The position numbers were made by a program, and so were the translations under genes. From Candidatus Rhabdochlamydia sp. (GTDB lineage Bacteria; Chlamydiota; Chlamydiia; Chlamydiales; Rhabdochlamydiaceae), in NCBI GenBank assembly GCA_049679255.1, contig JBAUFS010000124.1:1676-65675 (forward strand): a stretch of 64,000 bases of DNA, read 5' to 3'. This document shows, one piece after another, positions 10,422 through 11,531 of this stretch. Under the pieces are notes generated by a model. That model searched no databases and was not told the origin of the DNA. It saw nothing but the letters and a program-made list of their open reading frames with translations. The stretch's first letter is position 1. The number at the start of each line of letters is the position of its first letter.

Positions 10422-11531
10422 ATGAAAAGTAATCCATTAGTCATGCAAGAGAGTGTATTCCAAGAAGACGCATTGCTTCCTTTAAGCCCAACTCATGTGA
10501 TTTGGCAAGGAAAAAAAATGCTCGATTTTTCTTCTCAAGATTTTTTAGGATTATCCAACCATCCAGATCTTAAGAAACACACGATTAAATATTTATTACA
10601 TTATGGCAATGGAGTCTGCCATCCGGAGATCCCGGGGAGTTTTATCGAATGTCAAAAAACACTGGAGACAAAAATTGCAGAATTAATCAACATGCCTTAT
10701 TTGTATTTTTTCTCTAATCGTTATTTGGCATTATGGCATCTACTCTCTTCATTGAGTTCTGATGTTCTTTTACTGCTTGCTGATGATCTAGATCCGGGTT
10801 TAAGTAAAATTCTTTACAGTTTTCCTTTGAAAATTCTTACCTATAATCAGGGATCTTTAGCTACTTTAGAAGCTATTTTAAAAAAAGAGGGGCAATCCAT
10901 CTGCTCTGTTAAAATGATCTTTTGTGAATCTATTAGCAGCGGCAGTGGGACTTTAACCGACTTAAATTATATTACCTCCTTATCTCAAGCATACAATGCT
11001 CTATTAGTTGTTGATGATTCGCTAGCTTTTGGTGTTAAAGGCGATAGAGGCTTAGGTCTTGCAGCTAAACGAGGGGATATCGATTTAATTTTATGTTCTT
11101 TAAGCAATTCTGCAAGCGCAGATGCAGCTTTTCTTGGTTGTTCTTCTTGGATTAAAAACCTTATTAAAAAAAATGTTTTTTATCGAGAATCCAGTATAAC
11201 CTATGCTTCTTTAGGTGCCATAGAAATGGCTTTGGATCTTATCCCTTCTTTAGAAGGGGAAAGATATCAATTAGAGCAGAGATGCCATTGGATAAAAAAA
11301 CAATTGCAAGGATATGAAGTCTGCTCCTCCACACATGTAATCTGCCTACATTTTTCTCAAGAAGAAGAACTTTGGTTTTTTTGGGAAAGCCTTTTGCAAA
11401 GAGGCATTCTCACCCAGTTGATCTCCCACCAAAAGAGATCTTATACTCTACGACTTTTCATTAATATTCATCACACTCCTGATGATTTAAGAATGTTAGT
11501 AGAAGAGATAAAAGAATTAAAAAGTGGTTAG
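10422..11531 (+). CDS. Alpha-oxoamine synthase (BioF/SPT) family protein lacking the PLP lysine (start likely 10422, after GAGG)
   Basis: MLDFSSQDFLGLSNHP, ESISSGSG, VDDSLAFGVKG; the expected K of T(F/L)(G/S)K is N (SLSN). Confidence 0.85.
   Translation: MKSNPLVMQESVFQEDALLPLSPTHVIWQGKKMLDFSSQDFLGLSNHPDLKKHTIKYLLHYGNGVCHPEIPGSFIECQKTLETKIAELINMPYLYFFSNRYLALWHLLSSLSSDVLLLLADDLDPGLSKILYSFPLKILTYNQGSLATLEAILKKEGQSICSVKMIFCESISSGSGTLTDLNYITSLSQAYNALLVVDDSLAFGVKGDRGLGLAAKRGDIDLILCSLSNSASADAAFLGCSSWIKNLIKKNVFYRESSITYASLGAIEMALDLIPSLEGERYQLEQRCHWIKKQLQGYEVCSSTHVICLHFSQEEELWFFWESLLQRGILTQLISHQKRSYTLRLFINIHHTPDDLRMLVEEIKELKSG

Follow-up and report, generated by a model that had tools for sequence, protein, structure and literature searches.

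A Conserved, Probably Catalytically Dead BioF Paralog of Rhabdochlamydia and the Chlamydiae-Only Clade to Which It Belongs

Introduction

Why does a chlamydial genome in which we found none of the partner genes for biotin synthesis retain an intact and strongly constrained gene for a BioF-like protein from which the catalytic lysine is missing? The question is raised by P0001, a gene encoding 369 amino acids at 10422..11531 on the forward strand of a 64,000-nucleotide stretch of Candidatus Rhabdochlamydia sp. DNA (hereafter the window; positions 1,676 to 65,675 of contig JBAUFS010000124.1). Its assembly, GCA_049679255.1, comprises 1.8 Mb in 128 contigs and is 93% complete. An initial annotation made from the sequence had read P0001 as an alpha-oxoamine synthase (AOS) that had lost the use of pyridoxal 5'-phosphate (PLP), had likened it to SPTLC1/LCB1, the subunit of eukaryotic serine palmitoyltransferase (SPT) that has no catalytic role, and had suggested that it could be the inactive half of a heterodimeric bacterial SPT-like enzyme or a modulator of host SPT rather than a decayed bioF. 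Our analysis leads to another answer, which is that P0001 is probably a conserved, catalytically dead BioF paralog, a "dead enzyme" that has been repurposed. We consider it likely that the gene is functional and that its product is not a PLP-dependent AOS enzyme.

Gene, Fold and Active Site

The open reading frame (ORF) of P0001 is intact and full length, as the initial annotation had described it. It begins with ATG, and 3 nt before this codon the sequence reads AGAGG (10414..10418, forward strand), a Shine-Dalgarno-like motif. A TTG at 10314 is an alternative start that would lengthen the protein, but the longer form appears unlikely because close homologs all begin at the same MKSN or MRSN residues, which leaves the ATG as the likely start. 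Members of the exact-sequence cluster of P0001, whose names include Candidatus Rhabdochlamydia oedothoracis and R. porcellionis, are annotated either as "8-amino-7-oxononanoate synthase" or as "aminotransferase class I/II-fold PLP-dependent enzyme."

P0001 matches Pfam PF00155 at 41.8 bits (cut-off 19.7). Its best NCBIfam match is bioF (TIGR00858), at 124.5 bits and below the cut-off of 426.45, followed by models for SPT, KBL, CqsA-type enzymes and ALAS, all of which are far under their cut-offs (61-96 bits for the SPT, KBL and ALAS models against cut-offs of 338-640). An AlphaFold2 model built with 21 homologs (pLDDT 86, pTM 0.88) gave Foldseek TM scores of 0.83-0.86 to bacterial SPT, KBL, BioF, ALAS and human SPTLC1, and it predicts the three-domain AOS fold for P0001, in agreement with the BioF/SPT fold that had been proposed at first. 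In the model residues 1-14 are disordered and the AOS N-domain follows directly; we found no hydrophobic N-terminal segment or LCB1-type membrane anchor in either the sequence or the model.

What has happened to the active site within this fold? We mapped residues by phmmer alignments to SPT, KBL, BioF and SPTLC1 together with a column map to Escherichia coli BioF. Asn229 (11106..11108, forward strand like the other codons given here; CSLSNSA) stands at the position of the Schiff-base lysine, K236 of E. coli BioF; Leu201 (11022..11024; VVDDSLAF) occupies the position of His207 in the DDAH motif; and Asp124 (10791..10793; DDLDPG) that of the PLP-stacking His133. All three losses had been read correctly by the initial annotation, as had the SPTLC1 motifs that it cited: phmmer aligned "vvddslafgvkgdrglg...didlilcslsnsasa" of P0001 with "FLEESLSFGVLGEHGRG...DIDLISANMENALAS" of human SPTLC1, so that Leu277 and Asn309 of SPTLC1 share columns with Leu201 and Asn229. 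Further replacements are N47 by Gln39, G108 by Arg100, N112 by Leu104 and S135 by Gly126, so that seven of about 12 cofactor and substrate contacts are replaced, including Gly108 to Arg and Asn112 to Leu in the phosphate loop. Retained are Asp198 (11013..11015), the equivalent of the pyridine-nitrogen contact Asp204, which is 94% conserved in the clade described below; Arg344 (11451..11453), the equivalent of the carboxylate-binding Arg361; Ser173, the equivalent of Ser179; and the glycine-rich loop, which is intact. The same D/L/N state at the His133, His207 and Lys236 columns is common to all six Rhabdochlamydia orthologs, and because they share it, the state is not the chance decay of one sequence.

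A Chlamydiae-Only Clade with Repeated Loss of Catalytic Residues

Relatives of P0001 were identified by a pattern-plus-tblastn scan of species genomes and by a profile search of 1.84 billion representatives. In a FastTree phylogeny of the latter, 86 representatives, corresponding to about 86 clusters at 50% identity, formed a monophyletic clade that is found in Chlamydiae only. In an IQ-TREE analysis of 99 sequences (LG+C20+F+G4; BioF, KBL, SPT and LCB1, without LCB2 and with PDB reference sequences that are partial) the clade was supported at 100/100. It was nested among canonical BioF-like sequences (94/88) and stood beside E. coli-type BioF and chlamydial operon BioF (94/70), both being deep nodes of moderate support. 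The LCB1 proteins of human, Arabidopsis and yeast were monophyletic (100/100) and fell on the KBL/SPT side of the phylogeny (98/90). An approximately unbiased (AU) test rejected a grouping of Rhabdochlamydia with LCB1 (delta log-likelihood 94.6, p=0.00018). The grouping of the whole clade with LCB1 was not rejected (delta log-likelihood 36.9, p=0.11), and a deep link of this kind is formally compatible with the data. Even so, Rhabdochlamydia and LCB1 would have lost their catalytic residues independently, because the clade members L011, L012, P0055, P0088 and P0069 keep the canonical H/D/H/K/R. The best match of P0015, a less degenerate member, is E. coli BioF (173 bits), ahead of SPT (147), KBL (143), ALAS (125), LCB1 (109) and SPTLC1 (89).

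Loss of catalytic residues is widespread in the clade. Among 47 sampled members, Lys236 is lost in 21, by at least nine independent changes, His207 in 25, His133 in 21 and Arg361 in 25, and only five members are canonical at all five positions; the 49 sequences outside the clade other than LCB1 show no loss at any of the five. Twenty further species genomes repeat the picture, with the lysine kept in 12 and replaced in eight (Y, Y, E, C, H, R, N, S), and none canonical at all 10 cofactor and substrate positions. In 137 canonical AOS sequences 38 columns show at least 85% conservation, and we examined the same columns in 79 clade members. Cofactor and substrate columns are down to 21-57% conservation, fold-defining Gly, Leu and Asp columns are still at least 94% conserved, and the clade has a few conserved positions of its own (K51, K52, L59, G265, P275). 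By this pattern, constraint in the clade has shifted from chemistry to the scaffold.

Two groups within or near the clade deserve separate mention. One subclade (L013-L020, L071, L072) keeps His133, Asp204, His207 and Lys236 and has the carboxylate-binding Arg replaced by S, N, Q or K; these proteins may not be pseudoenzymes at all but PLP enzymes whose substrate has changed. Two of its genomes (G069, G135) are without hemE. A reciprocal pattern between subclades, with lysine lost and arginine kept or the reverse, offered too few independent contrasts and was not significant. In sister genera of the Rhabdochlamydiaceae we observed AOS-like genes shortened in frame to 279-306 amino acids (L058:5998-6837; L098, G066:C20; L099, G098:C11), which lack residues ~101-191, a part of the PLP-binding domain.

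Selection on the Gene

Is P0001, then, simply a bioF relic decaying under relaxed selection? Its BioF-like ancestry, the absence of the biotin pathway from its genome and the in-frame deleted variants of the sister genera would all suit such an origin. We estimated the ratio of nonsynonymous to synonymous substitution rates (dN/dS) by pairwise Nei-Gojobori comparison with five congeners. For the AOS-like gene dN/dS is 0.045-0.086 at dS of 0.20-0.68, to be compared with 0.047-0.067 for tkt, 0.11-0.19 for hemY, hemF and hemE, 0.11-0.16 for dapL and 0.23-0.87 for the fast-evolving ORFs immediately upstream (7336-9917). Its product is 92-97% identical across the genus, against 80-91% for that of hemY. 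The gene is under strong purifying selection and, within the genus, is as constrained as transketolase. Another Lys-less lineage (L021/L024/L026, with lysine replaced by histidine and a deleted loop) has dN/dS of 0.07-0.14, although dS is near saturation in some of its pairs. In the IQ-TREE phylogeny Rhabdochlamydia sits on a long stem (0.80 substitutions per site) with tips of at most 0.05, consistent with rapid change in a sequence that was later frozen. Because of the low dN/dS within the genus and the long stem with short tips, decay under relaxed selection is refuted, provided that the protein is expressed, as the initial annotation had anticipated when it preferred other readings to a decayed bioF. 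Each of the six Rhabdochlamydia genomes, moreover, has the ORF intact, as do Lys-less relatives that are only ~40% identical, and we regard a decaying relic as extremely improbable.

Such constraint is typical of enzymes, and it has to be asked if P0001 might still be one, binding PLP non-covalently or relying on another cofactor or set of residues for a different reaction. In favor of this are the retained Asp198, Ser173, Arg344 and glycine-rich loop and the fact that some clade members keep the lysine and both histidines. One account of pseudoenzymes describes "migrated" catalytic residues in some of them (PMC10211241), and in P0004 a lysine stands one position before the Schiff-base column. 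However, more than half of the mapped contacts have been replaced, no alternative conserved lysine was found within the clade in our alignment and column analysis, and no new catalytic consensus has emerged, since one lineage or another has N, R, E, Q, H, C, S or Y in place of the lysine. An enzyme of altered chemistry is for these reasons unlikely, in our view.

Likeness to LCB1

If P0001 is not descended from LCB1, what is to be made of the two residues that it shares with human SPTLC1? In overall similarity SPTLC1 is unremarkable. It scores 60.8 bits against P0001 and ranks 172nd of 223 AOS sequences, the canonical ones having a median of 102 bits, and a special overall likeness of P0001 to LCB1 was rejected since canonical AOS proteins resemble SPTLC1 more. 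That SPTLC1 appears about as good as BioF in the match list of P0001 is due only to P0001 having lost similarity to the canonical enzymes. At the His207 and Lys236 columns LCB1 is not uniform either, with L/N in the human protein, N/H in that of Arabidopsis and F/T in that of yeast, and these are the same kind of replacements as those found in the chlamydial clade. The shared changes of histidine to leucine and lysine to asparagine are thus best described, from the alignments and tree, as convergence and not inheritance.

Chlamydia species depend on host sphingolipids. We considered that P0001 might be secreted, enter the host and pair with or titrate host SPTLC2 or ORMDL, altering sphingolipid synthesis. 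The likeness at the dead active site, a GxC-x-P motif common to P0001 and LCB1 and the 14 disordered N-terminal residues of the model can be cited for this possibility. Yet ordinary AOS enzymes are more similar to LCB1 than P0001 is, the LCB1-type N-terminal membrane segment is missing, a dN/dS of 0.05 is that of a housekeeping gene when set against 0.4-0.9 for the adjacent effector-like genes, and the clade occurs also in lineages of varied catalytic state. Taken together, these observations make a secreted mimic highly improbable.

Partner Genes and Biotin Synthesis

A second way in which P0001 could act like LCB1 is as the non-catalytic subunit of a bacterial heterodimeric SPT or other AOS, paired with a Lys-bearing paralog encoded in the same genome. 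This proposal, made in the initial annotation, has in its favor the shared replacements and the location of AOS active sites at the dimer interface (PMC6148460), and one congener (G079) does have a canonical operon BioF as well. The proposal did not survive a search for the partner. Neither a TIGR00858 hidden Markov model (HMM) nor tblastn with chlamydial BioF, KBL and CT777-like proteins detected a second AOS gene, with or without the lysine, in the 93%-complete genome of P0001, and the P0001-type gene is the sole AOS gene in four of five genomes of the genus, the fifth, G079, adding a canonical bioBFDA operon. Given also the BioF-like position of the clade and the rejected grouping with LCB1, we find a heterodimeric subunit of this kind scarcely credible.

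The same genome is without bioA, bioB, bioD, kbl and tdh, as judged by tblastn with Kbl, Tdh and the chlamydial BioB, BioD and BioA of G079; the sole match to BioA is HemL. This agrees with published work in which R. oedothoracis is reported to be unable to synthesize B vitamins, biotin included (PMC9997750). The G079 operon (L066, G079:C95:16700-29800, in a 1.3 Mb genome) is a complete bioB-bioF-bioD-bioA(+1), and its BioF is canonical and groups with other chlamydial operon BioFs. Biotin autotrophy hence varies within the genus, because G079 has the operon and the genome of the window is without these genes.

Other AOS types in Chlamydiae are kbl-tdh pairs, BioF in bioBFDA operons, the Chlamydiaceae BioF_1/CT777 type and fusion proteins of 700 amino acids. 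The fusions (L078, G001:C1:731600-744800; also G064:C3 and G101:C2) are frames of ~700 amino acids in which a BioF-like domain, at 316-332 bits to TIGR00858, is joined to another domain, and the gene of L078 adjoins genes of the size of bioD and bioA. The kbl-tdh pairs occur in several Rhabdochlamydiaceae and other Chlamydiae (L062-L065, L077, L081) as a 396-amino-acid AOS followed by a gene for 341-349 amino acids, tdh being a candidate by size and order. Their KBL proteins score 370-382 bits on the bioF model and could be misnamed BioF by score alone.

Gene Neighborhood

Could the surroundings of the gene disclose its role? In the window, the AOS-like gene is preceded by metK (forward strand), hemD, hemC, radA and rnc (reverse), dapL and a gene for 214 amino acids (forward) and four fast-evolving ORFs (reverse), and is followed by a hemY-type gene (reverse), hemF (forward), hemE and tkt (both reverse). 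It is alone on its strand and preceded by a 500-bp AT-rich gap, in which promoter-like matches showed no excess over shuffled sequence. An AOS-like relative lies in the same neighborhood in 24 chlamydial loci, in the order dapL, 214-amino-acid gene, AOS-like gene and then either hemY/hemF/hemE or tkt directly.

The conserved upstream neighbor dapL, for LL-diaminopimelate aminotransferase, is at 4675..5862 on the forward strand (TIGR03542, 468.7 bits, over cut-off). The 214-amino-acid gene, unk214 (5868..6512, forward), encodes a CT296-like protein with a predicted iron- and 2-oxoglutarate-dependent (Fe/2OG) dioxygenase fold (AlphaFold2 pLDDT 81). It has no Pfam match; its top Foldseek match is Chlamydia trachomatis CT296 (3qh7), ahead of Fe/2OG dioxygenases of PhyH/SnoK type, and its dN/dS is 0.08-0.10. 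In C. trachomatis CT296 also lies near rnc-radA-hemC. A two-gene module of the AOS-like and CT296-like genes was rejected, as the latter is present in 94 of 150 chlamydial genomes and missing from the clade-bearing G069. The four ORFs between these two genes (6509-9917, reverse) are confined to Rhabdochlamydia, with dN/dS of 0.15-0.87 and 39-84% identity within the genus. One (7336-8169) has a long hydrophobic N-terminal region and then a coiled coil, another (8296-8964) has a polyproline tract, and by appearance the four encode secreted or inclusion-membrane proteins particular to this lineage.

Downstream, the protoporphyrinogen oxidase gene of hemY type (11517..12887, reverse; TIGR00562, 223.7 bits, over cut-off) converges with the AOS-like gene, their 3' ends overlapping by 15 nt, and is followed by hemF for coproporphyrinogen III oxidase (12910..13725, forward; PF01218, 260 bits) and hemE for uroporphyrinogen decarboxylase (13715..14731, reverse; PF01208, 373 bits). 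The overlap with hemY, the proximity of hemF, hemE, hemC and hemD, the recurrence of the arrangement in many chlamydial families and the membership of ALAS in the AOS family together raise the prospect that P0001 is an accessory or regulator of tetrapyrrole synthesis, such as a sensor or chaperone acting with HemY or HemF, or else a relic ALAS. An ALAS relic was ruled out. The ALAS model (TIGR01821) scores 60.7 bits on P0001 against a cut-off of 338.55, and the genome has a canonical HemL (559 bits) and a glutamyl-tRNA reductase, the only candidate for which (L093, G000:C38:3709-4662) is short, at 338 amino acids, and scores 144 bits, less than the TIGR01035 cut-off of 209.55; with both present, 5-aminolevulinate would come from the C5 route and no ALAS would be needed. 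A coupling to heme synthesis was likewise rejected. Of 150 sampled chlamydial genomes 126 have hemE, yet the clade-bearing G069 and G135 are without it, and the clade is missing from most heme-competent chlamydial lineages, including the Chlamydiaceae-like family. As the unrelated rnc, radA, tkt and dapL share the conserved synteny, a tetrapyrrole role is rather improbable, and the arrangement is best explained as a gene order that these Chlamydiae have inherited.

Proposed Origin and Function

How might a BioF have come to persist in this state? We propose that the Chlamydiae-only clade goes back to a BioF-like gene of an ancestral chlamydia, located between dapL/CT296-like and hemY/tkt genes. 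Its descendants would have been released from constraint on PLP and substrate chemistry but would have conserved the fold, together with the glycine-rich loop, N-terminal segment and long interdomain helix. On the Rhabdochlamydia stem the lysine, both histidines and several phosphate and substrate contacts would then have been replaced, and the new sequence frozen. P0001 would no longer bind PLP covalently or catalyze the condensation, but may still form an AOS-type dimer and act by binding. Its ligand could be one related to the old substrates (an acyl-thioester or acyl carrier protein, or an amino acid) or it could be a partner protein, for which P0001 would serve as scaffold or regulator. 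The retained Arg344, Asp198 and glycine-rich loop, with the strengthened basic pair K51/K52, would fit a retained binding site. Stated in full, P0001 is a cytosolic, non-catalytic, BioF-derived AOS pseudoenzyme whose dimeric scaffold is kept for binding or regulation, a statement in which we place moderate confidence. We think it very unlikely that P0001 is instead a convergent bacterial counterpart of LCB1 that pairs with a foreign protein and so controls its activity, be it SPTLC2 of the host, reached by secretion, or a different fold-type-I PLP enzyme of the bacterium.

Several points weigh against the proposal of a non-catalytic binding protein. The loss of PLP binding is deduced from residues in an alignment. 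The gene context, examined through the heme genes and the CT296-like gene in 150 chlamydial genomes, disclosed no specific functional link. Clade members with the lysine and both histidines may still be enzymes, so that "non-catalytic" may not cover the whole clade. Finally, the gene is absent or shortened in frame in some sister genera, and its role is not universal in the family.

What follows if the proposal of a repurposed BioF is correct? Since the Lys-less Rhabdochlamydia form is as constrained as transketolase and catalytic loss has recurred in the clade, the clade lends itself to the study of what a scaffold with the PLP fold can do without its chemistry. There is a practical consequence too, in that the annotation "8-amino-7-oxononanoate synthase" wrongly implies that a reaction of biotin synthesis belongs in metabolic reconstructions of Rhabdochlamydia, and database names need correcting.

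Comparison with Known Systems

Literature searches for a bacterial clade of Lys-less AOS proteins found no description of one; the nearest known systems are AOS proteins of other kinds. Bacterial SPT, KBL and ALAS, all homodimeric, have the same fold as P0001 but, unlike it, keep H/D/H/K/R. BioF provides the best-scoring model, is the best match of less degenerate clade members and is the group among which the clade is nested, whereas P0001 falls below the family cut-off, has lost the catalytic lysine and histidines and lies outside any bio operon, in a genome without bioA, bioB and bioD. Chlamydiaceae BioF_1 was described as a non-biotin BioF paralog of unknown role that keeps the catalytic lysine (Fisher 2012, PMC3459881). 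This protein (CT777-type, next to priA; NF004608/PRK05937) resembles P0001 in being a chlamydial BioF paralog that lies outside a bio operon and persists in species without the ability to make biotin. It differs from P0001 in its retained lysine (state HEHKR in L074), in grouping with operon BioF and not with the P0001 clade and in its locus; its model, NF004608, scores 68.3 bits on P0001 against a cut-off of 399.

The closest parallel in kind is LCB1/SPTLC1, which is likewise a non-catalytic protein under selection that has the AOS fold without the Schiff-base lysine and active-site histidines, and whose human form has at L277 and N309 the very residues that P0001 has at the His207 and Lys236 columns. 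A 2018 sphingolipid review called the SPT1/SPT2 heterodimer, with its Lys-less SPT1, unique among AOS enzymes (PMC6148460). P0001 differs from LCB1 in descent, in the absence of a Lys-bearing partner from its genome and of an N-terminal membrane anchor, and in keeping the aspartate and the carboxylate-binding arginine, both of which LCB1 lacks according to the same review. The two proteins thus offer a clear example of convergent replacement, of histidine by leucine and of lysine by asparagine, in dead AOS active sites.

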